IMG/VR virus record: IMGVR_UViG_2600255075_000001
Location: 55,584-119,583 of that record
From: a virus
Lineage: Duplodnaviria; Caudoviricetes
DNA length: 64,000 bases
Strand: one strand, 5' to 3'
Part shown: one piece after another, positions 1 to 21,312 of the stretch
Position numbering within the stretch: the first letter of the stretch is position 1
Layout: each line of letters opens with the position of its first letter
Notes under the pieces: model-generated
Database searches by the model: none
Told to the model about the DNA's origin: nothing
Seen by the model: only the letters and a program-made list of their open reading frames with translations
Translations under genes and position numbers: made by a program

Positions 1-42
1 TTTAACATTAAACTACCTCCTTGGATATTATTCTTATGAAAT

Positions 43-294
43 TCAAGTTTTATCAGTTTTTAATAACTCAGCAAGTTTATAAATGTCTTCCTTGAGGAGG
101 ACCAACTCGCATAATTTCTTCTCCTTTTTATCTGCACCAAGGGTCATGACATTCGCAATAAAGTCTTTTTCATGCGAAGTATTTACAATTTCCATCCATC
201 TTGGGGATACTTCACAAATCAAAGCTTTTGCGCCCAGTTCATTCTTCTTTCTTTGATAAAAACCTACTGGAAATCTGATAATATTATCATCCAT
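43..294 (-). CDS. hypothetical protein
   Basis: ORF 43..315; ATG at 294 preceded by GGAGGG RBS. Confidence 0.7.
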   Translation of the reverse strand: MDDNIIRFPVGFYQRKKNELGAKALICEVSPRWMEIVNTSHEKDFIANVMTLGADKKEKKLCELVLLKEDIYKLAELLKTDKT

Positions 295-343
295 TTTAGG
301 CCCTCCTAACTCCAAAAAAATAAAACTAGTATTTTATTGGTTA

Positions 344-835
344 CTACCGTCTCTGAATTTCTTGCATTTTAACCTTACCAATAATAATCATTTCCTGAAA
401 TGCTCTTCCCTTTACTTGGACATCATCTTGAAACTTTCCCTTATCCCAAAAGAGTGCAATTTTCGCAAGTTGATATAATACATAATACTTCTTACAAACT
501 AAAAGACCAACGACTATTAATATATTGAAAAACAGTAGAACCGCTACCAATACTAAACTCGGAATACTTGTGGATATTGGAATATTTACAATAAACTGCT
601 GTAAAAAGCCTAGAGAGAGCGCAACTGTACCAGCAACTCCCGAAGCTTTTTGATCAAGGAGGTTAAGAAACAAACTTGGATTATAATTAAAAAATGTTCC
701 ACTTTCTTTACGAAGATCATCGAAGCTTTTTGAGAAAAATGCAAATCCTAAAAAAATTACACCAACAAGATCCATAATTAGGCCAAAAATAGACCAAATA
801 TTTGCAACAGTAAAATGACTCAAATCAACATTCAT
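344..835 (-). CDS. membrane protein, about 3 TM segments
   Basis: 163-aa ORF with hydrophobic stretches. Confidence 0.75.
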   Translation of the reverse strand: MNVDLSHFTVANIWSIFGLIMDLVGVIFLGFAFFSKSFDDLRKESGTFFNYNPSLFLNLLDQKASGVAGTVALSLGFLQQFIVNIPISTSIPSLVLVAVLLFFNILIVVGLLVCKKYYVLYQLAKIALFWDKGKFQDDVQVKGRAFQEMIIIGKVKMQEIQRR

Positions 836-879
836 TTTTTCCGATCCTTTTGATTTATTTTATTGTTGAAGCCAGTCTT

Positions 880-1029
880 TTATCCAATTTTTATGTAGGT
901 ACTCAGCGTCTCAGTAAGCCACCTTGTGCCACCAGTTAAAAGGCTGCTAAATACTCCTGGATTCTTGTAAAAGTACAAGCATGTTGTCAATCCAATAAAT
1001 CCCAAGATAATCTTATTTCGATTAGGCAT
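880..1029 (-). CDS. small membrane protein (49 aa), not in ORF track
   Basis: MPNRNKIILGFIGLTTCLYFYKNP..., GGAGGAG RBS; stop lies in degenerate repeat 866-883. Confidence 0.55.
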   Translation of the reverse strand: MPNRNKIILGFIGLTTCLYFYKNPGVFSSLLTGGTRWLTETLSTYIKIG

Positions 1030-1122
1030 TCTGTCTCCTCCGCTTCTTATGGGATGCCCTACAACTTATAATTCTTCAGAATCATAACCAATCATGCCAT
1101 CATTCCTCATAAAACCAATCCA

Positions 1123-1332
1123 TTATTTATTTTCAACATACTCATCGACGCGTTTTCTAAACTCTTCATTGTCTCTATATTCAAAACACGAAGAGACAAC
1201 CATTTGAATTATACTTTCCCTTGTCATCTCGCGAATCTTCTCGTCGGCCATAACTCCATCAGAAAAGGTTTTGGCATTGCTCAGCACTGAATCAAAGTCA
1301 TATCTAACTCTACTCACAAAACAACCCTCCAT
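1123..1332 (-). CDS. hypothetical protein
   Basis: 69-aa ORF between two junction repeats. Confidence 0.55.
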   Translation of the reverse strand: MEGCFVSRVRYDFDSVLSNAKTFSDGVMADEKIREMTRESIIQMVVSSCFEYRDNEEFRKRVDEYVENK

Positions 1333-1415
1333 CTAAAATCATAAAATCTCCATTTTATCTTCTTCTTTAGAGCTCTTTTTTAGCTTCCATCCACAAGTAA
1401 ATTATTTTTATATTC

Positions 1416-1898
1416 CTATCTGTTTCCCATCACTTGCCACGCAGCACTAGATGGTGTGTAAATTTTTTTATTATCCCCATCTCTGCACCACACAACAAAA
1501 TGCTCACAATTATTAAATACTAGATTATAGCCTGTTGTATACAATTTACTATATGCTTTTTGAATTGCCTCCTCCCGGCTGCAATTCAATGGGCTGTTTC
1601 TTATTTCAATTGCTTTCCCATTTTTAAAAGTCTCGATTGTATCCATTTGTATAATTCCTAAGCCATCTACCTTTGTGAAATGAATCACCATTCCATCACC
1701 TATATAGATTCCATGATGAATATATCCGCAAAAAACCGAAATGTGATCTCCTTTTACTATTTCAGGGTCCTTACCAAAGAATGCATGTATCGCTTTATAT
1801 GGCGCAGCCTGAGAGCTTTCAACAGCATTGATTGTTGTTCTTGTCACTCTTTCAATTGCTTCGCTCAGTAAGGTTAAAGTATACTTCAAGCAAAACAC
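1416..1898 (-). CDS. LRAT/NC-domain (permuted NlpC/P60) protein
   Basis: HHGIYIGDGMVIH and NNCEHF catalytic motifs. Confidence 0.85.
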   Translation of the reverse strand: MFCLKYTLTLLSEAIERVTRTTINAVESSQAAPYKAIHAFFGKDPEIVKGDHISVFCGYIHHGIYIGDGMVIHFTKVDGLGIIQMDTIETFKNGKAIEIRNSPLNCSREEAIQKAYSKLYTTGYNLVFNNCEHFVVWCRDGDNKKIYTPSSAAWQVMGNR

Positions 1899-1968
1899 CC
1901 CTTATAAAATCAGTTTTTTATTAGATTGTTTAGCACTGCGCTTCCGCGGTTATCAATATGTTAGTTTC

Positions 1969-2727
1969 TTATTTGTTTTTTATCCGGGAAATACTGATAC
2001 TCTCCTTAATCTCTTTCCAAACCTGCTCCATGACTATCTGTGGATGAACTGAATTAATTTCTTTCTCTTCATCACTTAAAGTTTGCTTGAACCTTAACCA
2101 CTGTTTACTGAGGTATGCCAATCTTAAGTCCCTGTTAGTGCATCCTCTAAATTCATCATCGTTTCGTAAATGTTCTATCCATTTTCCTTGAACTTTTTGC
2201 GTAATCTCTTCAGTATAAATTACTCTATTTTGTTCGAGTTTATTTATTTCTTCTATGCCAAACTTCTCTTCAATCAATTCGTCTAAAGAATAAAATAATT
2301 GAGAATCCCATATAGCACCCTCATCATTCAAGAAATGGTCAATGCTCATGTAATATGTACTTAATATGACAACCACTGAAACCTTATATGTTACATCCAC
2401 AGGTATATCTTCAATAACTTTATTGTACTCATCTACTATATTAGTAATTTTCAACTTCACTTCATTACCGCTTGTTTTATACAAATGATTCTTAATCAAA
2501 TCCTCGTATGAAATAAGTGAACTTTGAACTTCATCCATTGTGAGTTTTGATTCAGTGATAAATACTGGGTAGTTTCCCCTTTTTGCTAAAAGAAATAATT
2601 TAAGGAAATTTTCCTTAGAGCTACTAATAGAAATATTAACTCTTTCGATTTCATCAGGGTCTAATTCATTGATAAAATATATTATCTCATTTTCATTTGC
2701 AAATTTAATAATATCTTCTAAAAACAT
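1969..2727 (-). CDS. hypothetical protein (252 aa, acidic)
   Basis: Long ORF with GAGGGA RBS. Confidence 0.75.
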   Translation of the reverse strand: MFLEDIIKFANENEIIYFINELDPDEIERVNISISSSKENFLKLFLLAKRGNYPVFITESKLTMDEVQSSLISYEDLIKNHLYKTSGNEVKLKITNIVDEYNKVIEDIPVDVTYKVSVVVILSTYYMSIDHFLNDEGAIWDSQLFYSLDELIEEKFGIEEINKLEQNRVIYTEEITQKVQGKWIEHLRNDDEFRGCTNRDLRLAYLSKQWLRFKQTLSDEEKEINSVHPQIVMEQVWKEIKESISISRIKNK

Positions 2728-2752
2728 ATTCCCTCTCTCTTTCTTGATGAAA

Positions 2753-3280
2753 TCAGACTTTTATTTGCTCGGCCAACTCTTTAAATTTCAGTAATAATTC
2801 TCTTGAATGCTCTAGTTGTTCTTCTAAAACGCCGTTGCTGCCTTCGATTTTAAAATGAAGTCCATTTATAATCCAATCAATCGACACACCATAGATAGAA
2901 GCAAGTTTAGATATGGTCAATAAATCGGGCTCACTAACATTGTTTTCATATCCGCTTATGGTTTTGTTATTTATACCTGAGAGCTGGGAAACCTCTCTTT
3001 GAGACAGTCCTTTAAGTTCTCTAGATTTTTTAAGTCTAAGTGATATTTCCTCTTTCTTAGGTGCCACTATTTTTTCTTCTTTTAATTGACGGCCAAACAA
3101 ATAATCTAGCGTAACATTGTAGAAATCAGCTACTTTAATTATAAATTTAAAATCAGGCTCTCTAATATCGTTTTCGTATCCTTAATACGTAGTACGAGCG
3201 ATATTCAAAGTTTTTGCAAGATCGCCCTGTGATAAACGTATTGATTCTCTTAAATATCGAAGTCTTTCGCCAATCGACAT
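2753..3280 (-). pseudogene. tandem two-domain XRE HTH regulator with in-frame TAA at 3182-3184
   Basis: ATG 3280 MSIGERLRYLRESIRLSQGDLAKTLNIARTTY*GYENDIREPD... continues in frame into ORF 2753..3100, which holds a second HTH. Confidence 0.8.
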
Positions 3281-3313
3281 GTATTCACCTAATCTAAAAG
3301 AATATTATTTTAT

Positions 3314-3484
3314 TCACTCATCAACTTCAATCAACAACCCTACAGTTACACTGATCGTTTCACCGGCATCAAATTCTACGTAGGCTGCGTCAGTTTCTGA
3401 AGTGAATCCATCAAATTCGTACTGAAGGAAAAAGCCAGTTCCTAATCCAATATGTCTCACTCGATCTCCACGATGAAATATCAA
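3314..3484 (-). CDS. 56-aa protein, possible Tudor/SH3-like fold; not in ORF track
   Basis: TTG start, IFHRGDRVRHIGLGTG pattern, GGGG RBS-like sequence upstream. Confidence 0.5.
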   Translation of the reverse strand: MIFHRGDRVRHIGLGTGFFLQYEFDGFTSETDAAYVEFDAGETISVTVGLLIEVDE

Positions 3485-3588
3485 AAAGACCAGCCCCTAT
3501 GTAGTTTGAAAACTGTTATATACATTATAATACGTTTCCAATATCTAGTATATCATATAATAATAAATTATATTCTTATACTTTTATT

Positions 3589-3771
3589 TTAATTATTTTC
3601 CCAAACTACCTCTTTAGTTACATTGTCAATTATCCTGTAACCGACTGGACAAAATAGTTTGAGTGCTTCGAGATCTTCGCTATCTTTTATTCGCTGCCAG
3701 TATTCGATTCCTGCTTTATCATCCCGTCCGTCATAGCGTTGCAGACAGTATCTCTTCACTTCGTTTTCCAT
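3589..3771 (-). CDS. hypothetical protein
   Basis: 60-aa ORF, AAGGAG RBS. Confidence 0.6.
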   Translation of the reverse strand: MENEVKRYCLQRYDGRDDKAGIEYWQRIKDSEDLEALKLFCPVGYRIIDNVTKEVVWENN

Positions 3772-3778
3772 CTCCTTA

Positions 3779-4084
3779 TCAAGCAGTTTGGAGCGCTAGA
3801 TACTTTTGCATAGATAATTCGGTTACCTGGTCTAAGAACCATTTCTCTTCAACAGGATTCAACTCTCGTGGTGTTATATAGGTGTCGCTGTTATTGCAAT
3901 AAATATCCGTGCGCCATCCGTTACCCTGTTGCTTAAAAGTAAAGGTGAGATCTCCCCATATTAAGTCTTTCTCATTTAGGACTTTAACTGCTTCCTCTTC
4001 CGTCAAACCATCGTTTTGCTTCACGAGAAGGTTTTTAAAATATTCATACTCTAAAAATCTTCTTTTTATCATTATTAACACCAT
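3779..4084 (-). CDS. hypothetical protein
   Basis: 101-aa ORF in operon context. Confidence 0.6.
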   Translation of the reverse strand: MVLIMIKRRFLEYEYFKNLLVKQNDGLTEEEAVKVLNEKDLIWGDLTFTFKQQGNGWRTDIYCNNSDTYITPRELNPVEEKWFLDQVTELSMQKYLALQTA

Positions 4085-4101
4085 CCTATATATTTTTGTT
4101 T

Positions 4102-4353
4102 TTAAGAATTGTCTTCTTCAAGTACTTGATTGCACACTTCTACGCATTCATTACAAATAACAACTCGTCTGGCAGCAATCATTTTATTTAATTCGCTTTG
4201 AAACTTACCACAAAAATCGCATTGCAACTCATTCTCGATACTTGGGAAAACAAGAAGTTCATCATACTTTTTAGCTTTTCTCATAATCTCATGCATCGCC
4301 TTAACACCTATATTCGATTCGCTCATACCCAATCTCTCCCTTATATAATTCAC
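4102..4353 (-). CDS. ClpX C4-type zinc finger protein
   Basis: CDFCGK..L.KMIA....ICNECVEVC motif; true start may be the second Met. Confidence 0.8.
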   Translation of the reverse strand: MNYIRERLGMSESNIGVKAMHEIMRKAKKYDELLVFPSIENELQCDFCGKFQSELNKMIAARRVVICNECVEVCNQVLEEDNS

Positions 4354-4553
4354 TTTTTATCGTCCATTTGCTCTTGTTTCAAATATTCGGCTGCAGGCGT
4401 CCCATTGCTCCAATCATAATTCTCAAGAAAATCAAATTGCGATTTACAGTGCCATCCATTCTCAAACATTTGTCTGTGATGCCTTTCTCTTTCTTCTACA
4501 TCATCATATTTATATAATTCCCGTTTGATTATAGACTCATGATATTTAATCAT
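4350..4553 (-). CDS. hypothetical protein
   Basis: 67-aa ORF, GGAGGG RBS. Confidence 0.65.
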   Translation of the reverse strand: MIKYHESIIKRELYKYDDVEERERHHRQMFENGWHCKSQFDFLENYDWSNGTPAAEYLKQEQMDDKK

Positions 4554-4592
4554 TATTTTGTAGTTCCCTCCTTATGAAATCTGCTTTTTTTG

Positions 4593-4898
4593 CTATTTAG
4601 GTTGAACAAGCATTCCACCACATTCAGGCTCTTCGCCTTCAAGCCATCCTATAATGCGCTCAAACATCGATCTATAACTACCCCTAAAATCAAAAAGTAC
4701 ATCATCAAATCCAATACTAAAACAACGGCCATCTCTCAAATCCCAATTCGGACAAACATATTTGATATGCCTACAAATTCTGTTTCGATTTTTACTAAGT
4801 CTACCGAACCTGTGACTGTCCCATATTTTACTCATAATTATTTTGTATTCATCAACTGTTAGCGATTCGCTACAGATTACTTCTGGAATATTACCCAT
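4593..4898 (-). CDS. hypothetical protein
   Basis: 101-aa ORF, AAAGGA RBS. Confidence 0.6.
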   Translation of the reverse strand: MGNIPEVICSESLTVDEYKIIMSKIWDSHRFGRLSKNRNRICRHIKYVCPNWDLRDGRCFSIGFDDVLFDFRGSYRSMFERIIGWLEGEEPECGGMLVQPK

Positions 4899-4970
4899 GA
4901 TTATTGATCGTCCTTTCGTTTTTGTGAATGAAATTGCTTTTTCATTTCTCGTTGCTTCTTCTAGTCTATT

Positions 4971-5276
4971 CTATTTGTTTGTAACCTTAATAATGATTTG
5001 CTGCGACTCAAGGATGATACTTAGTTCTGTCTTGCCATAACCCGAACTAATGGACACTCTCTTGTCACTCTCATCTAATCCAAAGTATTCAGTTATTTTA
5101 TTTTTACTATTATTGATTGACTCAAGATCGCTTGTTAAGTTAGGGAATGTTAATGATACAGTCATTGCTGAATCGCTGCCACATGAGACAAATGACCAAA
5201 CTGAGCCGGTTCCTTTATTGATCTCGTCTAGTAGATTTGAAAGTTTGCCAAGCTGGAATATTGATGGAGTTTGCAT
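4971..5276 (-). CDS. hypothetical protein
   Basis: 101-aa ORF, AAAGGAG RBS. Confidence 0.65.
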   Translation of the reverse strand: MQTPSIFQLGKLSNLLDEINKGTGSVWSFVSCGSDSAMTVSLTFPNLTSDLESINNSKNKITEYFGLDESDKRVSISSGYGKTELSIILESQQIIIKVTNK

Positions 5277-5347
5277 TTATATGTCTCCTTTCGGTTCGCC
5301 GATTATTTAAAAGCTCCGTAACAATTAGGTTGGGCTGTTATATCAAT

Positions 5348-5704
5348 TTATAGTTCACTACCATCCCACGGATAACAATTGGTATTATTTATGATTTGAG
5401 GCTTTACCCCAAAGTAATGGTACTCTGGCTCCAACTCTTCGTCTTCATAAGCTGCGGCCCACTCCGAAGCGATATTACTTGGATTGCTCGTTTCGACCAA
5501 CTTAATTTCAACGGTTCCTACATCTAACAGATGATCGCCACTACTGCACTTAGGACATTTAATACCATTTCCATTTGAATCAACTATGTTACATGAAAAA
5601 TGTAAACTACATTCAATACAGTACTGCAGTTCATCGTAGAATATGTGACCAATGATCTTCTCATCATAGTGCTGGATAATTCGTATAGGCATTAGTTTCC
5701 CCAT
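5348..5704 (-). CDS. zinc-ribbon protein
   Basis: CIEC...CPKC motifs, GGGGG RBS. Confidence 0.65.
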   Translation of the reverse strand: MGKLMPIRIIQHYDEKIIGHIFYDELQYCIECSLHFSCNIVDSNGNGIKCPKCSSGDHLLDVGTVEIKLVETSNPSNIASEWAAAYEDEELEPEYHYFGVKPQIINNTNCYPWDGSEL

Positions 5705-5737
5705 ATAATCCCCCCTGTTGAATTTACTTTTTAATAT

Positions 5738-6001
5738 TTATTTATGCTCACCCAGTCGCAATCTTTGTTCTAAACATTTGCTCTGTTTTGAGTCAAAATC
5801 CTCAGCGCGCGCGCGATCTAAAATGATTTCTAGAGAATCCATCGCAGCCGAGAAGCCCTTCTTTTCTTTAGGTAAATTGCATTGCAGCTTATTGATTGCC
5901 ATTCTTTGCAATTCAGACTCTAGAGTACTCGGTAAACATGATACCCATACCTTACATTGAAAGTCTTCCCCTAGATTGAGAGTTACCCATTTACCATACA
6001 T
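5738..6001 (-). CDS. hypothetical protein
   Basis: 87-aa ORF, GGAGG RBS. Confidence 0.65.
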   Translation of the reverse strand: MYGKWVTLNLGEDFQCKVWVSCLPSTLESELQRMAINKLQCNLPKEKKGFSAAMDSLEIILDRARAEDFDSKQSKCLEQRLRLGEHK

Positions 6002-6041
6002 TTCAGTTCATCCTCCCTCCTATAAAATCGCTCTTTTATTG

Positions 6042-6605
6042 TTAAGTCAGGCAAGCCATAGACTTAGCGATAATCCTCTTGTCTGATTCTATTTGCTTCA
6101 TCACTAGTTCCTGTTCTTCAAATTCAATTTTGATTTCAGCCATTCTTTGTTCGATTTCCTTCTTAACTTTAATAGATCTTGTTTTATATAATTTAAGATT
6201 TAAATTAGCTAACTCTATATCATTGTATAATTTTGTTTCTTTTATTTTCTTATACAATGTATTTTCTAGCTTTGTTAACCTTCTTATTTCAGATTGATAG
6301 AGTTTCACTAATTTATCATGGAGAGGATTCTTTTTATCTAAATCTGGAATATGTCCTCTTTTATATTCTATTACCGTTATTACTGTAGTAAGGTCTTGTG
6401 AAAGAATAATTCCCTTTTTCCCAGAAGCGAACAGATGACTTCTGTTACCTTTATCGCAAGTAATTTCTCCTATGTATGTACCCGCCCTAATAATTGACTT
6501 ACACATATTAATAATGTCGGCTTCATTCAACATCTTAAATCTTTCTTTTGCTCGTTGTATTGCATGAGGAGTAAAATCCAAAGCTTTTAAATTCACTTTG
6601 ATCAT
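6042..6605 (-). CDS. hypothetical protein, N-terminal DUF4258/RelE-like motif plus coiled coil
   Basis: FTPHAIQRAKERF ... TTVITV pattern. Confidence 0.6.
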   Translation of the reverse strand: MIKVNLKALDFTPHAIQRAKERFKMLNEADIINMCKSIIRAGTYIGEITCDKGNRSHLFASGKKGIILSQDLTTVITVIEYKRGHIPDLDKKNPLHDKLVKLYQSEIRRLTKLENTLYKKIKETKLYNDIELANLNLKLYKTRSIKVKKEIEQRMAEIKIEFEEQELVMKQIESDKRIIAKSMACLT

Positions 6606-6826
6606 TCTTTCCCCTCCGGGACCAATTGATATTTATTTATAATTTCAATAGCTTTATTTTTAAAATTCTCACCTATATAAACTGTTTGCCAGCTATTACT
6701 TAACCCGATTAGATTTTCTTTTTTCAATTTTCTTAGAACGTCAGTATCGTAACCCCTCCAGCTTTCATTTCCACTTGCTGTTAAATGAATAAGTACAACA
6801 GTTAGATCTTCAATTAATTGATCCAT
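6602..6826 (-). CDS. small hypothetical protein (DUF6429-like)
   Basis: SWRGYD.DVL..L pattern, GAGGTG RBS. Confidence 0.55.
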   Translation of the reverse strand: MDQLIEDLTVVLIHLTASGNESWRGYDTDVLRKLKKENLIGLSNSWQTVYIGENFKNKAIEIINKYQLVPEGKE

Positions 6827-6845
6827 TTTTCACCTCATAAAAGAC

Positions 6846-7106
6846 TTATTTCATCGTAATTGCTTCGACAATTAACCGACATGAATTATCATAATGTGCT
6901 TGGGCTAATTCCTTGCTTTTCTCTAAAGTGTGAACGTCTCTTCCAATATCTTTACCATCGAACCAGATCATATAAGTGTCATTATTTCCTTTAGAAATGA
7001 GATAATGACTTTTCTTAATTCCGAAGTCAACCCATGACTCGTGTTTATGAATCGAAGTTGATTTAAATTCCAATTTTTTAAACATAATAATTCGTCTCCT
7101 ATTCAT
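6846..7106 (-). CDS. hypothetical protein
   Basis: ORF bounded by repeats at 6837 and 7114. Confidence 0.6.
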   Translation of the reverse strand: MNRRRIIMFKKLEFKSTSIHKHESWVDFGIKKSHYLISKGNNDTYMIWFDGKDIGRDVHTLEKSKELAQAHYDNSCRLIVEAITMK

Positions 7107-7135
7107 ATTCTGAATGAAATACTTCTTTCATTTGG

Positions 7136-7480
7136 CTATATTACTTTCCGATATTGATATCCTGTAGGTGAATTGCCCACATATTCAAAACAAAACTTTC
7201 GGTTAGCCAAATTAATCTCTGTTACTGCACCTTTTTGGAATCCAGATGATTTAAGTTGTTCTATGAAATTTGGATTATGAATTATATCTGGATCGCTCTT
7301 ATCATCAATAACAATTTCAAAACGTTTCAGTTGATCTGGAAGTTCATTTACTTCTTCCCAATAGTCAAGTGCAATCAATGCTCCATTTCCAATTCCTGCT
7401 TCATTGCAAGCATTCGCAATATTTGTGCCGATTACATACTCTTCCTTGTCAAATCTCCAGACTAACTTATATATTTTCAT
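7136..7480 (-). CDS. hypothetical protein
   Basis: 114 aa, GAGGAGG RBS, bounded by repeats at 7114 and 7507. Confidence 0.7.
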   Translation of the reverse strand: MKIYKLVWRFDKEEYVIGTNIANACNEAGIGNGALIALDYWEEVNELPDQLKRFEIVIDDKSDPDIIHNPNFIEQLKSSGFQKGAVTEINLANRKFCFEYVGNSPTGYQYRKVI

Positions 7481-7520
7481 TTACTACTCCTCCTCTGAAT
7501 AAGCCGATAAAAGAATCCTT

Positions 7521-7727
7521 TCATCGTATTACATTAATTCCAAAATCATTTATCCATTCCAAATATCCAGAAGATGCTTCTTGTGCATAGATTAAGTTAC
7601 ATTTTGTTCCCTTCACATCTAAGTAAGTCTTAGCCTTGTTTTCGGCCTCTTGCTTTGTTAAAGCTTCCACAGGCATTGCAGCTCCATCATATCCAACATG
7701 CCAAATCACATTGAAACATCTCCCCAT
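7521..7727 (-). CDS. hypothetical protein
   Basis: 68-aa ORF whose start and stop codons overlap repeats at 7726 and 7507. Confidence 0.5.
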   Translation of the reverse strand: MGRCFNVIWHVGYDGAAMPVEALTKQEAENKAKTYLDVKGTKCNLIYAQEASSGYLEWINDFGINVIR

Positions 7728-7830
7728 GAAATAATCTTTTCATCGTATTAAATTCTGATTTTGCTCTTGAGTCCTAGCGAAACGTAATATAGGTGTATGC
7801 TCTTACATTTTTAAAGAAATCATTTGATTA

Positions 7831-8346
7831 TTAAACGATCAAGTAAGCCCAAACGACGTATAACAAATACACAAATAAAGGATGTGCCAGTATTGTAATT
7901 ACCTGAGCTAACCTGTTTTCCTTTATTAGCTTCTCAATTCTTAACACTTCGTGATGCAATCCTGTCTTTCTGCAATATTCAATTGCATAGTTATTTGCAT
8001 CCATCTCTTTTCTATTGAATGAGTAATAGATTAAATATAAAGCGCGCGCTAGTTTTTTTAATATCCATGGCTTATTACTGCTACTACGAAATGTGTAATT
8101 CTCTTTATTTCTATTCTTATACTGCCAGCTATGTCGCATCTCATGAGCAAGAATTCCAATGTTATTTGTGTCTGCAACAGCTACAAACTCGGGGTTTTCT
8201 TCCCAAACATGTGCCCCTAAAAATAACGAACCATATTTTTTAGTTTTTTCTTTTGCCTCTTCTCCAAAGAAGACTAAGGGATCGACATTCAGTTCTCGTT
8301 TTAGGTTTTCAGTATGAGCGTAAAAAAGCGTTTTCTCATCTACCAT
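7831..8346 (-). CDS. HExxH zincin-like protein with C-terminal TM (DUF3920-like)
   Basis: LAHEMRHSWQ and E.DAN.YA motifs, hydrophobic C-terminus. Confidence 0.7.
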   Translation of the reverse strand: MVDEKTLFYAHTENLKRELNVDPLVFFGEEAKEKTKKYGSLFLGAHVWEENPEFVAVADTNNIGILAHEMRHSWQYKNRNKENYTFRSSSNKPWILKKLARALYLIYYSFNRKEMDANNYAIEYCRKTGLHHEVLRIEKLIKENRLAQVITILAHPLFVYLLYVVWAYLIV

Positions 8347-8472
8347 GTAACTATCTCCCTATGTATAATCGTTTATTTTTACAGAACAGACATTGCTCTT
8401 CACCAAGTACTTAAAGCATATTTCTTCTTCTTTATACAAGTCAATTCTTGTATAAAATATTCATTTCATTTT

Positions 8473-8736: not shown

Positions 8737-8920
8737 TAATTTTCACGCTCCTATAAGTTGAGCAATTTGATAAAAGGATCATTTTATTGCTTAAAACACT
8801 CTAATTATTTGTTCGGTTTTCTTTTTTAAATACTCAATCTCTTTTGACTGCGATTTAATCAGTGCTAACATTCCAGTAATTACTGGATCATTTCTATAGT
8901 GTCTATCATCGATTAGTTTT

Positions 8921-9191: not shown

Positions 9192-9220
9192 ATTATATTC
9201 TTTTATTATATTAACGTCAA
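9192..9220 (-). promoter_or_regulatory. sigma-A-type early promoter
   Basis: TTGACG-N17-TATAAT on minus strand. Confidence 0.75.
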
Positions 9221-10486: not shown

Positions 10487-10487
10487 T

Positions 10488-12021: not shown

Positions 12022-12069
12022 AAGCCATATGAAATACAAATTTTATCGTGGAATAAAAAGTGGCCGCTG

Positions 12070-13277: not shown

Positions 13278-13401
13278 ATATTAGTGCCTCCTGAAGAATT
13301 CGATATGGTAATATTGTACAACGAGTCATTTGTTGCTGTTACCAATTTTGCTAGCTAGATGATAAAATCAATGTTTTATTACCTATATGTACTTAAAATG
13401 C

Positions 13402-13680: not shown

Positions 13681-13721
13681 AATAAAAACTCCTTAATAAA
13701 TTTAATTAGTATACTTTTATT

Positions 13722-13904: not shown

Positions 13905-14066
13905 ATTCGCTTCACCCCTTCTATGTATTTCCTACTCCTTTATTATAACACAAACTAGATTAATAGTATAGTTTTATTTTATTAATCAAACGATGAAAAC
14001 AGTTTTTCATCGTTCTATAACTTCATACCTCTCTATATTTCCCCTTGAACATCAAACCATTTACCA

Positions 14067-14942: not shown

Positions 14943-15127
14943 ACAGGAAGTTTATACCACATTTTGAATTATGACTTCTTACTATGAGCAAGCAAACTTG
15001 TTTATTGGTATGACGCTCAGCCAAATGAATTTGTGAGATTTAATATATCTCGTTCTATACAAATTTGTGTTCACCATATTTATTTATGTAATGAAATAGC
15101 CATTTCATAAAATTTCCTCATTGTTAA

Positions 15128-15925: not shown

Positions 15926-15970
15926 CTCGTGACTCGTTCAGTTAATGTAAATTAATTTAGAATAAAACAG

Positions 15971-16288
15971 TCATTTCATTTCAAATTCATAAATATCGAA
16001 TTCGTCCCAGATTTGCCACTTTACATTTGATAGTTTTTCAAGGTCAATATTTCTCATTCCATGACTTAAATATGCTTTATCACGTGTTCCATTTATTACA
16101 TCTAGTATTCTATTATTGATTCCCTCAACGGACTGATCAACCAGAATATAAGATGCCCCACCATCTAAAGTATCTTCAAATTGAAACTTGGAGCCTCGCG
16201 ATTCCTGAATTAATCCCTTTAATTTGCGTTTATAAAACTTTGGCTTATAATCAATTTCAAGCATTTCTCTTTTCCTCTCTTTCCTCAT
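15971..16288 (-). CDS. hypothetical protein
   Basis: ORF spanning repeat 15962 to degenerate repeat 16287. Confidence 0.6.
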   Translation of the reverse strand: MRKERKREMLEIDYKPKFYKRKLKGLIQESRGSKFQFEDTLDGGASYILVDQSVEGINNRILDVINGTRDKAYLSHGMRNIDLEKLSNVKWQIWDEFDIYEFEMK

Positions 16289-16425
16289 AAAATAACCCTT
16301 ATATCGCCCATTTGCATTATATATTCTTATTATACTGATTTAACCAAAACAATCATAGGTAGGGTAACATTTGTTCCATTAAACTTTGATTATGTATTCC
16401 TTGATCCTTTTGATCGACGCCGCTG

Positions 16426-19047
16426 TTATATAGCTTCTGCCGCGTCATCCTCCATCTTATCAATAATAACTAGGACAGTATTAACTGAGGTTCCCGATTC
16501 TTTAAAAGATCCTTCGGGTAACATATCGTAGTATCCACGCTCATTTAACCATTCGCGGAATTCTACACTTTTAAAATCGTTCGCAAAGGTGAAATGAGGA
16601 GACATGATAGCAACAATACGTCCACCATTCTTTAGGCACTTATAGGCATGCTGCACATGGGCTATGTCTTTGTTGCGTTCGAATGGAGGATTCATAATGA
16701 TTTTGTCGAAATGGTTATATCTAACATGTTCAAGGAAATCATATCCAACAATATTGTATTGTTTAAGTTCTAAAATCTCACGAAGTGAACTGTTCCACTC
16801 TATCCCCTCTAGATCCGCAGCTATGCCGTTTTGCTGACAATGTGCTGTTATACTGTCTAGAATGTTCCCATTACCCGCAGACGGTTCGAGGACTGTCTCT
16901 CCGTCTTTAATATCTGCATAGCTCAGCATGTGTTCAACAATGGTTTTAGGTGTAGGATAGTAGCCGTCTATTTTCTTGAATTTAACCTCAGCTTCAAGTT
17001 TCTTGATTTTCTTTATTATTGGGTTTACCGGCTTCTCAATTTCCGCGATGATTGTTTCATATTCATCTAATGCACTGTTGTATTGATATGTATTGCATAT
17101 ATTCGCTCTATTAAGCATCTTTTGTTTTTTGGGAACTTGAAGATTCCACATGCCATCAAGAGGTAAACTATAATCAATTTCAGGATATTTAGTCTCCCGT
17201 TTAAACTTTGTTCTTGAGATAAATCGATTATGAATGTCATCTCTAAACGTACCAACTAAAAGAGCTTGTTCTAATTGTGTCATGCTGTTATGGATTGCTT
17301 TATCTTTTAGATATTGAAGCAAAGCAATTTCAAGTCGTAGCCTTTCCCGCTTATTTTCTCTATTTTCCTCCTCATTTTGACGCTTCCATGTGTTAGTAAG
17401 ATAGTTTCTGCTTATTGCATTAAGTTTCTTTTGTGCCGATTCAATTTGCTTCTCAATCTTGCCAATATTTTGTTCCTGATTGGATGAAATTGGGTTTTTA
17501 TCGGTTTTCTCTCCATTTTGCTGTTTCATCTTTGAGCTGCTGATATTCATTACTTTTAGCGATTCCAGAGCCTCCACAATGAGGGAAGAGCCTTGCCCAT
17601 AGGAACGGAATAGTCCAATCAAGATCTCGGATACGAAGAAGCCTCTTTCTTTTACATAGTCCGATATCTTTGCTTTATATTCTGTTTTCTCTTCCTCAGT
17701 TTCTGGACGCTTAATATTGCCATACTGATCCGACATAATAGATGTGGAATAGTCCATAATCCAATCTGCAGCATCTTCTATGGTAATGCTGGTATCATGA
17801 GCGCCGGCTGTTATAGGTGATTCTTGAGCCTCTGCAAAGCCTAATAGCGCTTTTAACTCTGCTGTGATATCGTGACCATTCTTCGATTTGGTAATAAGTT
17901 GTGATGCTTTGTCTTTAGTAATGACAAGGTTTGTCGTATTGAGTTTTGTAGCACAATGGAGAGCCCACAATTGACGCTTAGTTGCCTGTTTTTCATCAGT
18001 TACAGTTTCATTTTTCGTGTAAGTTTGCTTCTTCTCTGTTGACGCCTCTTCGGTGTCTCCGGACAATGCTGGTGCGTCCATATTTGCTTTAGGTTGTTTA
18101 CGCGACGTCTTCTTAAATACAATTTTCTCTTCATATTCTGTTGCTTCTTGCAATTCAACGATAGAAATGTGTCCTTTCTGAAGGAGATCGTTTATTTTGT
18201 CCGTAGACACAAACATTGTTTTTCCTTTAGCCTTAGAAGGCTTGCCATTCTTGCCAAGTTTGGAAAAAGATCCGCTTTTCTTGTCATCATAAACATACAC
18301 ACATTGCCACTTAGTACCCTTCCAATTGCCGTTAGTGTAGTCGCACTTCATAATGAACGTAGTTCCAGTTTTAAAATCTTCTGCTGTTATAAAGGTTTTT
18401 TCAACTTCTACAAATTTAACGATCGTTCTAGGAACAAGTATAATTTCTGATTCAAGTGTATCGGAATTGCGCAGAACCTTTTCGAAACGGTTCACAATAG
18501 CAATTACTCTTTCTTGTTTCTGTTGTTCAGCCGTTTTTGTTTTATCTTTATAATCATAATCATTGCAAGCGAATACGCCGGTTCCCTTGCCTATAATTTG
18601 ACCGTCCTTTTCAATATGCCAAGAACAATTACCTGGATTTTCATAAGTGAATGAAGGGTAAGTTTCAACAACTGTAAATTGCGGTTCCGTATCCCTGCAT
18701 CTCAGACGTTCGATACCTGCTAGAGCCGCCGCGCGCTCCCCTTCGGTAGCACCAGAGTTAGCGGCCGCAAGTTTGTGTAATTTTTCTAATTTACGATTAA
18801 TATCCTGATTGGTTTTAACACTGCTATAAAGTACTTGCTTCTTTTCATATCCCGAATAGTATGTATTAGAATGATCGATAACGAGAACATAACCATTTTT
18901 TTCAGCGAGACCATCCCAAGAAGCTGGGTCAAAATAATCAGTCATTGAGTCGCTGCAATCTTCTTTATACCCATAAGTCTTCCAGCCACGTTTAACGAGT
19001 TCCCGCATAATTAATACTTTAGCTTCTCTCTTATCTCCATACCACAT
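16426..19047 (-). CDS. 873-aa multidomain protein with C-terminal N6-adenine DNA methyltransferase
   Basis: YYPTP, VLEPSAGNG (motif I), IIMNPPF (motif IV), F..SGTSV; DUF2786-like helix ATEGERAAA in N-terminal part. Confidence 0.85.
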   Translation of the reverse strand: MWYGDKREAKVLIMRELVKRGWKTYGYKEDCSDSMTDYFDPASWDGLAEKNGYVLVIDHSNTYYSGYEKKQVLYSSVKTNQDINRKLEKLHKLAAANSGATEGERAAALAGIERLRCRDTEPQFTVVETYPSFTYENPGNCSWHIEKDGQIIGKGTGVFACNDYDYKDKTKTAEQQKQERVIAIVNRFEKVLRNSDTLESEIILVPRTIVKFVEVEKTFITAEDFKTGTTFIMKCDYTNGNWKGTKWQCVYVYDDKKSGSFSKLGKNGKPSKAKGKTMFVSTDKINDLLQKGHISIVELQEATEYEEKIVFKKTSRKQPKANMDAPALSGDTEEASTEKKQTYTKNETVTDEKQATKRQLWALHCATKLNTTNLVITKDKASQLITKSKNGHDITAELKALLGFAEAQESPITAGAHDTSITIEDAADWIMDYSTSIMSDQYGNIKRPETEEEKTEYKAKISDYVKERGFFVSEILIGLFRSYGQGSSLIVEALESLKVMNISSSKMKQQNGEKTDKNPISSNQEQNIGKIEKQIESAQKKLNAISRNYLTNTWKRQNEEENRENKRERLRLEIALLQYLKDKAIHNSMTQLEQALLVGTFRDDIHNRFISRTKFKRETKYPEIDYSLPLDGMWNLQVPKKQKMLNRANICNTYQYNSALDEYETIIAEIEKPVNPIIKKIKKLEAEVKFKKIDGYYPTPKTIVEHMLSYADIKDGETVLEPSAGNGNILDSITAHCQQNGIAADLEGIEWNSSLREILELKQYNIVGYDFLEHVRYNHFDKIIMNPPFERNKDIAHVQHAYKCLKNGGRIVAIMSPHFTFANDFKSVEFREWLNERGYYDMLPEGSFKESGTSVNTVLVIIDKMEDDAAEAI

Positions 19048-19139
19048 AATATTACATCTCCTTGCTATGTATTATTTTATTTTTAAATTCAAGATTTAGT
19101 TGCTGTTATATGATCAATGCAAGGGATAATAGTAACATT

Positions 19140-19274
19140 TTATTTGGTATTAAAAGAATCGGCTGCAACGTATGAAGCTAAAGTCATTTTTAATAATTCC
19201 TTTGTTTTTTTGTCTGTCTCTTCTTTTATTAATTGTTCAAACTGTTTAATAATTTCATCTTCTTTTGTTTTCAT
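19140..19274 (-). CDS. small hypothetical protein (44 aa)
   Basis: AAGGAG RBS, MKTKEDEIIKQFEQ... Confidence 0.45.
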   Translation of the reverse strand: MKTKEDEIIKQFEQLIKEETDKKTKELLKMTLASYVAADSFNTK

Positions 19275-19285
19275 CTAATCGCTCC

Positions 19286-19492
19286 TTATCGTATAACTGT
19301 ATAACCGTTTTCTTCTGCCCATTCTTTAGCATTTTTTCTACTATTCAATACATTTATTACCCATCCACCAGCCTCGCACAAAGAGCCAGTTAGAGGATAA
19401 AATCTTAAAGCTTTTATTTCCCATTTTCTATTCTTATTATTTAATGCAACTCGCCCATCGAACCTAATAGGTATATTTAATTCTTGATTCAT
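19286..19492 (-). CDS. hypothetical protein
   Basis: 68 aa, AGGAGG RBS. Confidence 0.6.
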   Translation of the reverse strand: MNQELNIPIRFDGRVALNNKNRKWEIKALRFYPLTGSLCEAGGWVINVLNSRKNAKEWAEENGYTVIR

Positions 19493-19555
19493 CGTTTTAT
19501 CCTCCTATGAAATTAAAATTTCATTGCCTGATTAAATACAAGCACAGTATTCTAA

Positions 19556-20731
19556 TTAGCGGGTGTATCTATACAAATAACAGTTACCATGGCTAACAGC
19601 GCTTATGCCGTCGCGGGTCTTTTTAACTAAACGCCTTTGTTGTTTCTCGCTGATAAATTCGTCTGCGATTGGTTTTAGATCCTCAATCTTGATTTCTTGA
19701 GTTAAGACACTTTTATCCGTAGTCTTAACGATTTGGAAAGCTGCTCGTATATTATCGCTTGTACTCCATTTTAAAACTAAAATCTCACCAACATTAAACG
19801 GATTGGGTTCAGTTTCTTTCTTATCTGTCCATCCTTCGGGAATTTTCATTTCTTCGATTTCGGCATATGGATAGTAGCAGTAGCACCCTTTTAAATGCTG
19901 GTCAATGTAATCGCCGCTAACCTTCTTAGGATTTACCTTTAAAACAGTTGCCCAGAGTCCTCTTACTTTTATCAAATAACCTACCTTTACAGTATCTTTG
20001 CTATATTCAAAGCCTCCAATTTCATCCATGCGGTTTTGTAAATAAGCAAGTTTATCGACTTCGTATTCCATCCGATCTAGCAATTTTTGCAGCCATTCTT
20101 CATCATTTCTTTCTTCTGCCTTGACAATATACCTTTCAAGGCTACGAATTTCCTTTTGGCACTCCTCTATCCTGTTATTCAAATAAGGCTTACTATTGAG
20201 TTTTGTTTGGTCTGCTGTTGCATGCGCAGTTTCTGCTCGTTCCTTGAAATATTCGCTTTTTCGATACTCATCGAATCCTTTATGGTAACGGTTTAAAACC
20301 CTGTTTCTTTGATTTGTGAAAGCTCTACCTGCGCTGCTGTTTATATTCGGTTGCGTCAGCCATGACCAGTCTTTGCGCAATTCATCAAACTCCTGTTGCA
20401 ATCCTTTCGCTCTATTGGCTGCATTATCTGCGTATTCTTCATAGCGTTCCGCCCTACGTTCTGCTTTCTCCGCTTTCCGTTCTAGCTGTTCAGCATATGA
20501 CAAACGCTCGCCTTCCTGTCCTCCGTTTGTAAAGCCCAACTGTTCAGCAACCCGAAGGGCCGAATAATGATTATTCGTTGATTTCGACACCCAAGCTCCT
20601 GCATAGCTTGACCATGTAAAAAACCGCCTCAATTCTTTTTTCTGCACTTCTGGCATTGATTTGTATTCGTCTTTTGTAAAACGCAATTCAATTTTCTGTG
20701 TTTCACGATTTAAAATGTATTGGTTTGACAT
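19556..20731 (-). CDS. DUF3560-like protein
   Basis: ERKAEKAERRAERYEEYA...QPNI...RA..A pattern; AGGAGG RBS. Confidence 0.7.
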   Translation of the reverse strand: MSNQYILNRETQKIELRFTKDEYKSMPEVQKKELRRFFTWSSYAGAWVSKSTNNHYSALRVAEQLGFTNGGQEGERLSYAEQLERKAEKAERRAERYEEYADNAANRAKGLQQEFDELRKDWSWLTQPNINSSAGRAFTNQRNRVLNRYHKGFDEYRKSEYFKERAETAHATADQTKLNSKPYLNNRIEECQKEIRSLERYIVKAEERNDEEWLQKLLDRMEYEVDKLAYLQNRMDEIGGFEYSKDTVKVGYLIKVRGLWATVLKVNPKKVSGDYIDQHLKGCYCYYPYAEIEEMKIPEGWTDKKETEPNPFNVGEILVLKWSTSDNIRAAFQIVKTTDKSVLTQEIKIEDLKPIADEFISEKQQRRLVKKTRDGISAVSHGNCYLYRYTR

Positions 20732-20784
20732 ATTTATTCCTCCTATAAAATCGAAATTTCATTGCCTGATTAAAACGTTTTTTG

Positions 20785-21240
20785 TTACTCTTTCCATCCC
20801 TTTTTAATCGTTGCAAAATCGCCAACTTTAATTATGTGAGCTTTTGTTTTACTCTTGTATATCCTAATAGTAACCGAGTTGTCATCTGCAAAATGAACAG
20901 TTCCTTTGCCGCTCATCTCACCAAATATTGTATCAACCGTGTAACGGACCTTATCTCCTTGATTTAAAGACTGGATAACTTCTCTTTGCATAATTGTTTG
21001 AATGAGATCCACTGTCAAATCATACTTTTCGGCATACTCAAGTGCTTTTTCATATGGCAGACCAACCATACAATAATTCCCCCAATAAGGAGCTACAAAA
21101 CCGCTGTCACGCCTATACGATTTAATATTATTTTCTTTTATATCTAAATCAATCAATTGCTGGAGCGTCTTATACTCCTCTTCTGTTCGGTTGTATATGT
21201 TAATTCGAGCCACCTTATTTATTCCATTCACATTGAGCAC
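20785..21240 (-). CDS. hypothetical protein
   Basis: 151-aa ORF between repeats 20745 and 21289. Confidence 0.65.
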   Translation of the reverse strand: MLNVNGINKVARINIYNRTEEEYKTLQQLIDLDIKENNIKSYRRDSGFVAPYWGNYCMVGLPYEKALEYAEKYDLTVDLIQTIMQREVIQSLNQGDKVRYTVDTIFGEMSGKGTVHFADDNSVTIRIYKSKTKAHIIKVGDFATIKKGWKE

Positions 21241-21312
21241 CCCATTATTGTTTTTAGGCTTTGCAACTTTCTCATTACATTAAATCAAATAAAATCAAAC
21301 TTTTATCGTTCA

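Follow-up and report, generated by a model that had tools for sequence, protein, structure and literature searches.

An 18-bp palindrome with position-specific spacers punctuates arrays of accessory genes in SPβ-like phages

The stretch of DNA analysed here (the window, 64 kb) belongs to G000: a palindrome at 36..53 (spacer TTCAAG) ends a block of homology between G000 and G002, its spacer being kept with one change. On the minus strand the window encodes a YonR-like Cro/C1-type HTH protein (115 aa, 2753..3100; Pfam HTH_3, E 2e-16), which shares 38% identity with the yonR region of SPβ, and a YopP-like protein with a tyrosine-recombinase fold (350 aa, 25711..26763; Pfam Phage_integrase, 40.7 bits), 30% identical to SPβ YopP. 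On the plus strand, a YomM-like tyrosine recombinase lies in the tail-gene block (327 aa, 45029..46012; Pfam Phage_integrase, 70 bits); it shares 33% identity with SPβ YomM and matches PDB chains of XerA and of XerC-like proteins. A third tyrosine-recombinase gene, also on the plus strand (62891..64000), continues past the window end (PF00589, E 6e-30, on C30:137140-137676). Just outside the window is the gene for an MrpR homologue (C30:68188-69189; Pfam MrpR_N_CB and MrpR_C_cat), which matches PDB entries 8a0a and 8bj6 at about E 1e-27.

The window holds 29 strict copies of the palindrome ATRAAA-N6-TTTYAT, where dinucleotide shuffles predict 0.29, and at least 29 copies were reached in 0 of 100 such shuffles, which bears out the enrichment far above chance claimed in a first-pass annotation. 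All 21 copies that it had placed in 1-21.3 kb and all four in the late region are present, but the counts rise to 22 and seven, as copies at 17484, 41484, 53405 and 58284 had been missed. These four lie inside long ORFs, so that the earlier statement that every copy sits at a gene junction holds for 25 of the 29. About seven degenerate copies had also been counted; the number is right for one-mismatch copies (36 matches with at most one mismatch, minus the 29 strict), but the class is at chance level because the same search on shuffles gives 6.18. With seven one-mismatch copies against about six by chance, the palindromes are all-or-none sites. The whole 6.4-Mb genome holds 73 strict copies, 69 of them in C30:18,335-144,934, within an SPβ-like prophage of about 133 kb that forms an island of about 35% GC in a genome of about 52%. 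The other four lie outside the prophage (one at C30:192,031 and three on other contigs), and the host's own DNA is all but free of the motif.

Stop codons fall within several copies and agree with the ORF ends, as first reported: that of ORF 43..315(-) in copy 36..53, that of the YonR-like gene (2753) in 2747..2764, those at 6846 and 7521 in 6837..6854 and 7507..7524, and that of ORF 15971..16288(-) in 15962..15979. The copies at 320..337, 1341..1358 and 4928..4945 are at gene junctions, and 19507..19524 and 20745..20762 stand immediately 5′ of a ribosome-binding site; 12029..12046 lies between convergent genes and lacks a downstream ribosome-binding site. Spacers are common to G061 and G147 (320..337), G061 (6022..6039), G118 (6837..6854 and 19507..19524), G118 and G077 (7114..7131) and G118 and G109 (7507..7524), and the spacer of 1904..1921 is the same as that of a second copy at C30:143145. 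The extended arms described at 13989-14014, around copy 13993..14010, are real. Further strict copies lie at 7726..7743, 8452..8469, 8770..8787, 13362..13379, 15091..15108 and 21289..21306, and 17484..17501 falls within an 873-aa methyltransferase-domain ORF. In the late region, 30251..30268 follows an HU-like gene and is conserved within a G002 block, 43967..43984 and 60774..60791 occupy gaps, and 46015..46032 is at a convergent junction just after the YomM-like gene. Two late copies lie within ORFs 40679..41905 (41484..41501) and 57776..58393 (58284..58301), and 53405..53422 is either 60 nt into ORF 53345..54199 or 5′ of a later start codon.

The palindrome is read as duplex DNA and not as a hairpin. 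Among 60 copies, the R/Y combinations AT, AC, GT and GC occurred 30, 14, 10 and 6 times, where independence predicts 29.3, 14.7, 10.7 and 5.3; no pairing covariation between half-sites was found in this set, and three of six copies tested folded no better than shuffles. Copy 13993..14010, whose single strand folds at -10.3 kcal/mol, is atypical among those tested. Independent half-sites and many non-folding copies argue that the palindrome is not an attC-like hairpin. The first-pass annotation had called the region integron-like, and there is a likeness to the integron attC/attI system in the co-oriented, mostly single-gene units of an accessory region parted by a repeated recombination-type site; integrons in phages are reportedly the topic of PMC9892861. 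However, attC sites are long imperfect palindromes acting as folded single strands, whereas the palindrome has only 18 bp, lacks pairing covariation and in many copies fails to fold. The palindrome array showed no attI/Pc platform. Neither integron membership nor the label is supported in view of the half-sites and the folding results. The palindromes act as duplex DNA and mark off the accessory genes in the arrays of SPβ-like phages; their anatomy, confinement to the prophage and independent half-sites are established.

The flanks of the palindrome are asymmetric and track the direction of transcription, with C-R before the motif and A at spacer position 6. By the gene calls of a crude, purpose-written caller, 31 of 60 co-oriented copies end at most 30 nt before a called start codon, often abutting AGGAGG. 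Both observations would suit a signal at the RNA level, in which an AU-rich element 5′ of the Shine-Dalgarno sequence is a putative processing site or binding site for a translational regulator. We consider such a signal unlikely, since the site is a perfect DNA palindrome without pairing covariation (A-C combinations are as frequent as expected), half of the copies tested do not fold, and nine of the 69 prophage copies are flanked by convergent or divergent genes and have no gene following them on the strand concerned. It would also leave the position-specific conservation of the spacers, described below, unexplained.

Homology between related phages breaks off preferentially at the palindromes. 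In the early region of G000 and G002, 22 of 50 HSP ends lay no more than 12 nt from a strict copy. Breakpoints fell at 22 of 46 motif junctions and 13 of 73 motif-less ones in this pair (odds ratio 4.2, p = 8e-4), and at 12 of 23 and 15 of 85, respectively, between SPβ and phi3T (odds ratio 5.1, p = 0.002), although both tests overstate independence, since the genomes in each pair are relatives. In SPβ itself the core TAAAA-N6-TTTTA is present 34 times, mostly at stop-motif-RBS junctions. Within the window, homology blocks of G002 and G003 both begin exactly at 2747, and the copies at 6022..6039 and 6837..6854 form the two ends of block 6010-6855. Contig homology of the metagenome relative X3 begins at 320 and at 1900 (beside copy 1904..1921) and ends at 4946, and three of the six contig loose ends listed for it are at motif copies.

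Block edges hold 19 of the 25 aligned G000/G002 motif pairs, and in all 19 the palindrome and spacer lie inside the conserved block, as its last bases. Across the aligned pairs, spacers had diverged by 6.0% and their flanks by 13.3% (p = 0.003). Five of the 25 G000/G002 gaps are replacements with the same two palindromes at both ends. Three single-gene indels (gaps 3->4, 11->12 and 12->13) adjoin one palindrome and are not flanked by two, which speaks against the simple site-by-site excision envisaged at first. The coincidence of breakpoints and palindromes is established; counting against a role in recombination, the very short intergenic gaps mean that any gene-sparing breakpoint must fall near a palindrome.

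Unexpectedly, the 6-bp spacers proved to be position-specific across distant phages. Seven prophage loci of different genera have, pair by pair, 69 identical oriented spacers in common, against about 10.8 from column-shuffle nulls summed over the same genome pairs. Twelve spacers recur in at least three genomes (null 0.5), and all shared spacers are perfectly colinear in eight of the nine genome pairs with at least four shared. For 60 of the 69 shared-spacer pairs, no protein homology was detectable within 1.2 kb on either side. Two results point the other way. Orthology of flanking genes was detectable for 12 pairs, in which the spacers were similar (1-5 of 6 matches) and never identical. Between this clade and SPβ, 0 spacers were shared (null 1.6). 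Conserved colinear spacers in distant phages are established, and their position specificity argues that spacer identity matters and is not ignored, contrary to the Tn916-like tolerance of non-matching spacers that the first-pass annotation had invoked.

On comparison of sequences, the breakpoints at palindromes and the kept spacers suggest fixed docking points for gene swapping. We consider it plausible, at about even probability, that the palindromes are position-addressed recombination linkers through which cassettes are exchanged in register. The invariant arms ATRAAA and TTTYAT would be read by a dimeric phage protein, and the 6-bp spacer would act as an address, found at a single junction in any one genome and conserved at the same relative position elsewhere. 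Exchange between co-resident or co-infecting relatives would occur only at copies with the same spacer, swapping gene cassettes in register; copies within one genome would not recombine together, hence no deletions. We infer that recombination itself takes place at the palindromes and that spacer identity is the thing checked during exchange. A protein with a tyrosine-recombinase fold, for instance the YopP-like or the YomM-like one, might be the enzyme; alternatively, a protein-marked site might be acted on by the phage's general machinery for annealing and recombination. The earlier reading of the copies as recombination junctions thus survives in its prophage confinement (four of 73 copies lie outside) and its breakpoints, and not in its integron label, spacer tolerance or simple excision.

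Variants of lox and FRT with heterospecific spacers serve recombinase-mediated cassette exchange, and XerCD/dif has a 6-bp central region. The palindrome resembles such tyrosine-recombinase core sites in having inverted arms around a 6-bp centre and in the coexistence of the same arms with different spacers, and the pattern of the same two sites with different content between genomes recalls cassette exchange. However, its arms are conserved over only 6-8 bp, shorter than those of characterised tyrosine-recombinase sites, and its recombination role is putative. To our knowledge, the heterospecific-spacer arrangement is an engineering device and not a natural phage system. A second parallel is with the PeSLs of T4-type phages, which the excerpted text of Arbiol et al. 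describes as a sigma-70 promoter plus a stem-loop terminator, recombining via mutual similarity to yield mini-circles (Arbiol et al., 2010; PMC2839356). According to the same excerpt, PeSLs are, like the palindromes, short conserved intergenic elements, dense among small non-essential genes, at which related phages differ by insertions, deletions and replacements (PMC2839356). The palindrome differs in its 18-bp length, in lacking promoter and terminator and in having its own conserved spacer in each copy; among the assembled contigs, which were the only material, no mini-circle, other recombination product or hybrid junction was found for it.

The main rival to recombination linkers is a dispersed operator or roadblock, similar to a stoperator, at which a dimeric phage protein, for example the YonR-like HTH protein, would occupy every junction and silence or pace the transcription of lengthy polycistronic arrays. 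We regard this as possible but doubtful. A 6-N6-6 palindrome with independent half-sites suits the binding of duplex DNA by a homodimer, and the sites are confined to phage, in gaps just 5′ of ribosome-binding sites, with flanks whose asymmetry follows transcription. The 20-kb array has few promoter-like sites (92 against 84.7 in shuffles) or terminator-like sites (3 against 8.6), and would therefore benefit from points of control within it. Under an operator, the breakpoint match would arise only because sites and viable breakpoints both need very short intergenic gaps; the odds ratios given above, however, favour motif-bearing over motif-less junctions. Operator families usually show graded degeneracy, whereas one-mismatch copies are at chance level here, and affinity tuning poorly explains spacers conserved in order across genera despite differing genes. 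In cluster A mycobacteriophages, the immunity repressor binds stoperators, which are asymmetric and 13-14 bp long. Stoperators share with the palindromes the pattern of dozens of repressor-type sites in short prophage gaps with orientation linked to transcription, but the palindrome is symmetric, lacks an excess of degenerate copies and has site-specific conserved spacers.

SPβ is already known for a dispersed operator, SPBRE, which is bound by MrpR, a precedent that favours an operator; in the excerpted text of the study, MrpR ChAP-seq yielded no more than ten peaks, each of them at an SPBRE promoter (Kohm et al., 2023; PMC10516654). SPBRE belongs to the same phage family and is likewise a dispersed, partly palindromic intergenic element, its known binder is a recombinase-fold protein (PMC10516654, same excerpt), and the present prophage encodes an MrpR homologue. 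That the palindrome is a diverged SPBRE, and so an operator bound by MrpR/YopR, the master repressor with a tyrosine-recombinase fold, is nevertheless highly improbable and already largely refuted. SPBRE occurs at about ten promoters (same excerpt) and upstream of published MrpR targets reads about ACAAATACAAAWAATATGTATA, overlapping the -10 box, a sequence that differs from the palindrome, and the 34 palindromes of SPβ contrast with its ten peaks. The palindrome does not track MrpR homologues either: six MrpR-homologue loci, including the three closest (62-69% identity), carry 0 copies, and four loci with 33-44% homologues carry 15-24. The prophage's own promoter-embedded repeat, ATAAAAGAATATAAT, makes a stronger candidate for the counterpart of SPBRE. 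We therefore rejected the palindrome as an SPBRE/MrpR operator, which also excludes the known master repressor as the protein behind a dispersed operator.

The YonR-like and YopP-like proteins are candidate binders only, and the YomM-like protein is likewise only a candidate. Across the six motif-positive loci, the only genes common to all were YopQ and MrpR homologues, both of which also occur in motif-negative loci, and gene co-occurrence tied no recombinase to the motif. Phage vB_BcoS-136 has YopP-like and YomM-like genes, yet only three copies in 50 kb. The tyrosine recombinase consensus contains H-x-x-R, in which the Arg is the second catalytic Arg; the YopP-like proteins of both the prophage and SPβ have H-x-x-K.

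A DNA search of the phage collection returned no match to the window (positions 1-22000 in near mode, 1-8000 in distant mode), so the phage was identified through its proteins. The window was located at G000:C30:73731-137730, in a genome of 6.43 Mb and 32 contigs. When our own gene calls were compared with SPβc2 by tblastn, homologs of YopP, YopQ, YopR, YonO, YonN, YonJ and YomM were found, as well as the tape-measure protein, ribonucleotide reductase, DNA polymerase and others, at 22-66% identity and in an SPβ-like order. A homolog of MrpR (YopR), encoded at C30:68188-69189 and so 4.5 kb outside the window, matched PDB 8a0a and 8bj6 (E around 1e-27) and the Pfam MrpR families. Judged by these protein, structure and Pfam matches, the island carrying the motif is classed as a distant SPβ-like prophage. 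Among solved structures, the MrpR homolog matched best not MrpR itself but PDB 9rd5/9rgl (E 8e-30), a recently deposited entry whose title reads only "Core-binding (CB) domain-containing protein". A YonO-like single-chain RNA polymerase of 785 aa (window 27301-29658, plus strand; Pfam RdRP, E 5.5e-17), 49% identical to SPβ yonO over 257 aa, is encoded at the strand-switch point and adjoins an HU-like gene (29906-30190).

The palindrome ATRAAA-N6-TTTYAT occurs in 29 strict copies in the window, where dinucleotide shuffles predicted 0.29 and reached 29 in none of 100 trials. The whole genome holds 73 strict copies, 69 of them within C30:18,335-144,934; this motif-rich interval coincides with an island of ~133 kb whose GC content is ~35%, compared with ~52% for the genome. 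Outside the prophage there is one copy at C30:192,031 and three on other contigs. All the positions given in the first-pass annotation were correct, with four copies missed (17484, 41484, 53405, 58284); as these four lie inside long ORFs, the claim that every copy sits at a gene junction holds for 25 of the 29. The copy at 17484 is within a gene (16426-19047, minus strand) whose 873-aa product has an N6 DNA-methyltransferase domain at its C terminus. Seven window copies carried exactly one mismatch, and shuffles yielded 6.18 matches when up to one mismatch was allowed; the strict sites are thus not surrounded by a set of degenerate ones.

To describe the anatomy of the sites, 60 copies were oriented according to the strand on which the flanking genes lie. 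The oriented consensus was C-R-ATRAAA-N5-A-TTTYAT, often followed directly by AGGAGG. By the crude gene calls of a simple home-made ORF and RBS script, an upstream stop codon fell within -8 to +10 nt of the copy in 26/60 cases, and the copy ended at most 30 nt before a called start codon in 31/60. Convergent or divergent gene pairs flanked 9 of the 69 prophage copies. The R/Y combinations of the two arms (AT 30, AC 14, GT 10, GC 6; n = 60) were those predicted by independence, and single-strand folding of three of six copies tested was no better than that of shuffles. On these two grounds the palindrome is read as duplex DNA by a two-fold-symmetric factor, and not as an attC-like site or RNA hairpin. 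An RNA signal, the kind of explanation that had been offered earlier as RNA processing, is improbable, well behind both recombination linkers and operators. The integron-like label proposed in the first-pass annotation also had to be dropped, because of the nature of the site: integron attC sites are imperfect inverted repeats, tens of bases long, that fold as single strands, whereas this site is 18 bp long, with R/Y pairing at chance and the folding just described. The core sites of tyrosine recombinases consist of inverted arms around a 6-8-bp center, and the palindrome has this form, its 6-bp spacer lying between arms of 6 bp, or of 8 bp when the C-R flank is counted.

A published element of SPβ had to be considered. 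SPBRE, the SPβ repeated element, was reportedly defined by Lazarevic et al. in 1999. According to later reports, its prediction dates from 1999, and work in 2023 showed that it serves as operator for the tyrosine-recombinase-fold repressor MrpR (PMC10516654; PMC4191935); the ten MrpR ChAP-seq peaks described there all lie at SPBRE-carrying promoters (PMC10516654). The SPβc2 regions upstream of MrpR targets (aimR, yosX, yonX, yorE and others) share approximately ACAAATACAAAWAATATGTATA, which overlaps the -10 box and is unlike ATRAAA-N6-TTTYAT. In SPβ itself the strict palindrome occurs 14 times and its core, TAAAA-N6-TTTTA, 34 times, mostly preceded by a stop codon and followed by an RBS. We then looked at co-occurrence in ten other loci of the host family that encode an MrpR homolog. 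The motif was present at 15-24 strict copies per 40 kb in four of them, which are low-GC, SPβ-like and have MrpR at 33-44% identity, and was absent from the remaining six, including the three with the closest homologs (62-69% identity); the motif thus does not track MrpR. The target upstream sequence and the co-occurrence test together rule out the palindrome as SPBRE, and that it could be a diverged SPBRE is very improbable indeed, again behind linkers and operators. The best sigma-A-type promoters of the prophage share a different word, ATAAAAGAATATAAT, which spans the -10 box (window 9192-9220, 22385-22399 and 3567-3581, all minus strand; also C30:40467, 61172, 36834 and 142495). Such promoters number about 8-10, similar to the SPBRE count of SPβ, and we infer that ATAAAAGAATATAAT is the likelier SPBRE counterpart and a candidate operator for the MrpR homolog of this prophage. 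In SPβc2 (L001-L003) there is yet another junction repeat, roughly GAATAAAAATAAAAT, lying just 5' of many ribosome-binding sites (for example at 132,770-132,790, 119,400-119,420 and 113,680-113,700). This repeat is neither SPBRE nor the palindrome, and accounts for the commonest 11-mers of the SPβ genome, with TAAAAATAAAA occurring 11 times.

The first-pass annotation had proposed testing whether gene presence/absence breakpoints between related phages fall within the motif. Homology breakpoints, taken as the ends of BLAST HSPs in two phage pairs and one metagenome, were enriched at motif-bearing junctions in both pairs. In G002, a genome from the same genus, there is a prophage that is a mosaic relative of this one and contains 39 strict palindromes; the two were compared by a colinear BLASTN chain. 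In the early region, 22 of 50 HSP ends fell at most 12 nt from a strict copy in G000, when about 1.5 would be expected (an estimate from the fraction of sequence occupied); three more adjoined a copy present only in G002. Forty-one of the 50 ends were at junctions and nine were intragenic. Breakpoints were found at 22/46 motif-bearing junctions vs 13/73 motif-less ones (Fisher odds ratio 4.2, p = 8e-4), and for SPβ vs phi3T at 12/23 and 15/85, respectively (odds ratio 5.1, p = 0.002). Contigs of metagenome run X3 lost homology at window positions 320, 1900 and 4946, each of which is a motif copy, these being three of the six loose ends listed. Two apparent joints in contigs of runs X1 and X2 were discarded, as they proved to be paralogous stretches elsewhere in the same genome. 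In a second clade, genome G118 gave 4, 3, 0 and 0 HSPs with G113, G109, G122 and G111, the DNA being too divergent for a breakpoint test.

Among aligned G000/G002 motif pairs, 19/25 were at the very edge of a block, and in these 19 the palindrome with its spacer was inside the conserved block, whichever flank was the conserved one. There was no case between these two prophages of palindromes in both lying just past the block end with differing spacers; in one gap of the SPβ/phi3T comparison (3->4) homology stopped after the first arm and the spacers differed. Spacers diverged at 9/150 positions and flanks at 243/1821 (p = 0.003, G000/G002), a difference that is only suggestive because alignments at block edges are biased towards matches. 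Five of 25 G000/G002 gaps were replacements with the same palindromes bounding both sides, and three single-gene indels abutted one palindrome only. The nearest documented parallel is PeSL, a cassette of T4-type phages that is reported to be a promoter-terminator unit and to mediate modular shuffling (PMC2839356). The palindrome resembles it in having indel and replacement breakpoints between close relatives at the element. PeSL contains a strong promoter and a terminator stem-loop, whereas the 20-kb gene array here showed no excess of promoter-like sites (92 vs 84.7 in shuffles) and few terminator-like ones (3 vs 8.6).

The central 6 bp were next compared as possible addresses. Only two duplicated spacers were found among 74 core-pattern (TRAAA-N6-TTTYA) sites in G000, and none in the other genomes compared. 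One spacer, AACTGA, is seen twice in the prophage in direct orientation (window 1904-1921 and C30:143145-143162), and a ~130-bp repeat of 85% identity is also present, its copies 67 kb apart (window 3310-3440 and C30:143998-144130). Seven prophage loci, drawn from different genera within the family and with DNA that could not be aligned, shared 69 identical oriented spacers, against about 10.8 from the summed column-shuffle nulls for the same pairs; as the genomes are related to each other, these counts are not independent events. In eight of the nine genome pairs with at least four shared spacers all of them were perfectly colinear (for example 9/9 in order for G000/G061 and 7/7, in reverse order, for G077/G118). 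Twelve spacers recurred in at least three genomes, against a null mean of 0.5 and maximum of 3 (300 shuffles). The immediate flanks of shared-spacer sites had random-level identity, and in 60/69 pairs none of the ORFs lying up to 1.2 kb to either side had a BLASTP match at E < 1e-3 (random site pairs, 79/80 without a match). The spacer is unique within a genome and conserved by position across genera, while the neighboring genes change. Besides the relatedness of the genomes, two results cut the other way. Twelve pairs could be scored in which the flanking genes were reciprocal best hits and both carried a palindrome, too few for a rate, and their spacers matched at 1-5 of 6 positions, never at six (at least four in 5/12; null probability 6.4%); G000 and SPβ shared no spacer, against a null of 1.6. 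Scanning IMG/VR with one address (AGATAA) gave 99 loci, of which 78 were single-copy, consistent with chance, and 4 had at least four copies; the short loci in this last class had few further addresses in common with the compared genomes. The metagenomic viral contigs L136 (IMGVR_UViG_3300025009_000243), L123, L118 and L149 carry the palindrome very densely, at up to 16 strict copies in 9.8 kb, so the element family is widespread outside cultured genomes.

At classical tyrosine-recombinase sites, a cognate recombinase is recruited by common arms and carries out cleavage and strand exchange at the borders of the spacer, and the two partners need matching central regions, a principle also used for cassette exchange with engineered heterospecific lox/FRT pairs. 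The strict, all-or-none and family-confined palindrome, its placement at junctions, the homology blocks that end on it and the position-conserved spacer make up the pattern expected of such sites. We therefore favor, at about even confidence, the reading of the palindromes as position-addressed recombination linkers, a model whose recombination step and enzyme are inferred. The chief alternative is a dispersed site that acts as operator or roadblock, with the overlap of breakpoints a by-product of very short intergenic gaps. Stoperators are bound by the phage repressor and block transcription in an orientation-dependent manner; of this, only flanks that are asymmetric relative to transcription were seen here. 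Strictness, junction placement, block ends and position-conserved spacers are jointly hard to explain by regulation alone, and we consider the operator reading rather unlikely. More specifically, and more tentatively than for linkers in general, SPβ-like phages might run a natural recombinase-mediated cassette exchange addressed by spacers. A phage-encoded recombinase-fold protein would recognize the common arms, and strand exchange would occur only between sites with identical 6-bp spacers. With dozens of heterospecific addresses in a fixed order, relatives could swap genes between matching addresses in register, so that the genome would be neither scrambled nor deleted.

The evidence on candidate enzymes was weak or negative. 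Integrons have an IntI-type integrase beside an attI site and a cassette promoter; here, three tyrosine-recombinase-fold genes are present, none of them at the head of the array. A 350-aa recombinase-like gene (window 25711-26763, minus strand) was considered as MrpR and rejected, having no PDB match and no similarity to YopR; its product is a YopP homolog. Active tyrosine recombinases have H-x-x-R at the second catalytic arginine. The YopP family, both here and in SPβ (L002:28691-29767), keeps the tyrosine and histidines and has lysine at that position (H-x-x-K), so YopP may be a repurposed recombinase-fold protein. Phage vB_BcoS-136 has YopP-like and YomM-like genes, yet only three palindromes in 50 kb. 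No protein tracked the motif among six motif-positive loci: only the YopQ and MrpR homologs were common to all, and these occur in motif-negative loci too.

Mosaicism in phages is usually ascribed either to illegitimate joining events that are rare and then selected, or to homologous exchange inside genes common to both partners. What was found here is a family-wide, protein-site-like mark at the junctions where homology blocks end, whose central bases are retained at each position from genus to genus even as the genes between marks change. Were these marks addressed exchange points, this would account for the turnover, in very large temperate phages, of dozens of small accessory genes, many of which probably act in defense or counter-defense, with gene order preserved. 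They would be a dedicated evolvability device for anti-defense and other accessory genes, the model phage SPβ included. They would also provide naturally occurring, mutually orthogonal recombination sites, and the long-standing "linker" hypothesis, on which phages evolve by modules, could be put directly to the test with SPβ/phi3T in Bacillus subtilis 168. Even as operators they would form a second dispersed SPβ element, one undescribed in the literature searched on SPβ and relatives, which included PMC10516654, PMC8612738, PMC4191935 and the preprints 10.1101/2021.11.22.469490 and 10.1101/2020.05.06.055103.

Two further features of the prophages were seen. The G002 prophage lacks ~31 kb of the late (structural) region, window 32047-63366 corresponding to 4.7 kb at G002:C2:2325692-2330363, and is probably a defective derivative. 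Sequences like tRNA 5' ends (GGGCCCTTAGCTCAGTTGG...) follow two conserved promoters outside the window, at C30:~61,150 and ~142,470 (L026, L027), which suggests that the prophage probably carries tRNA genes.
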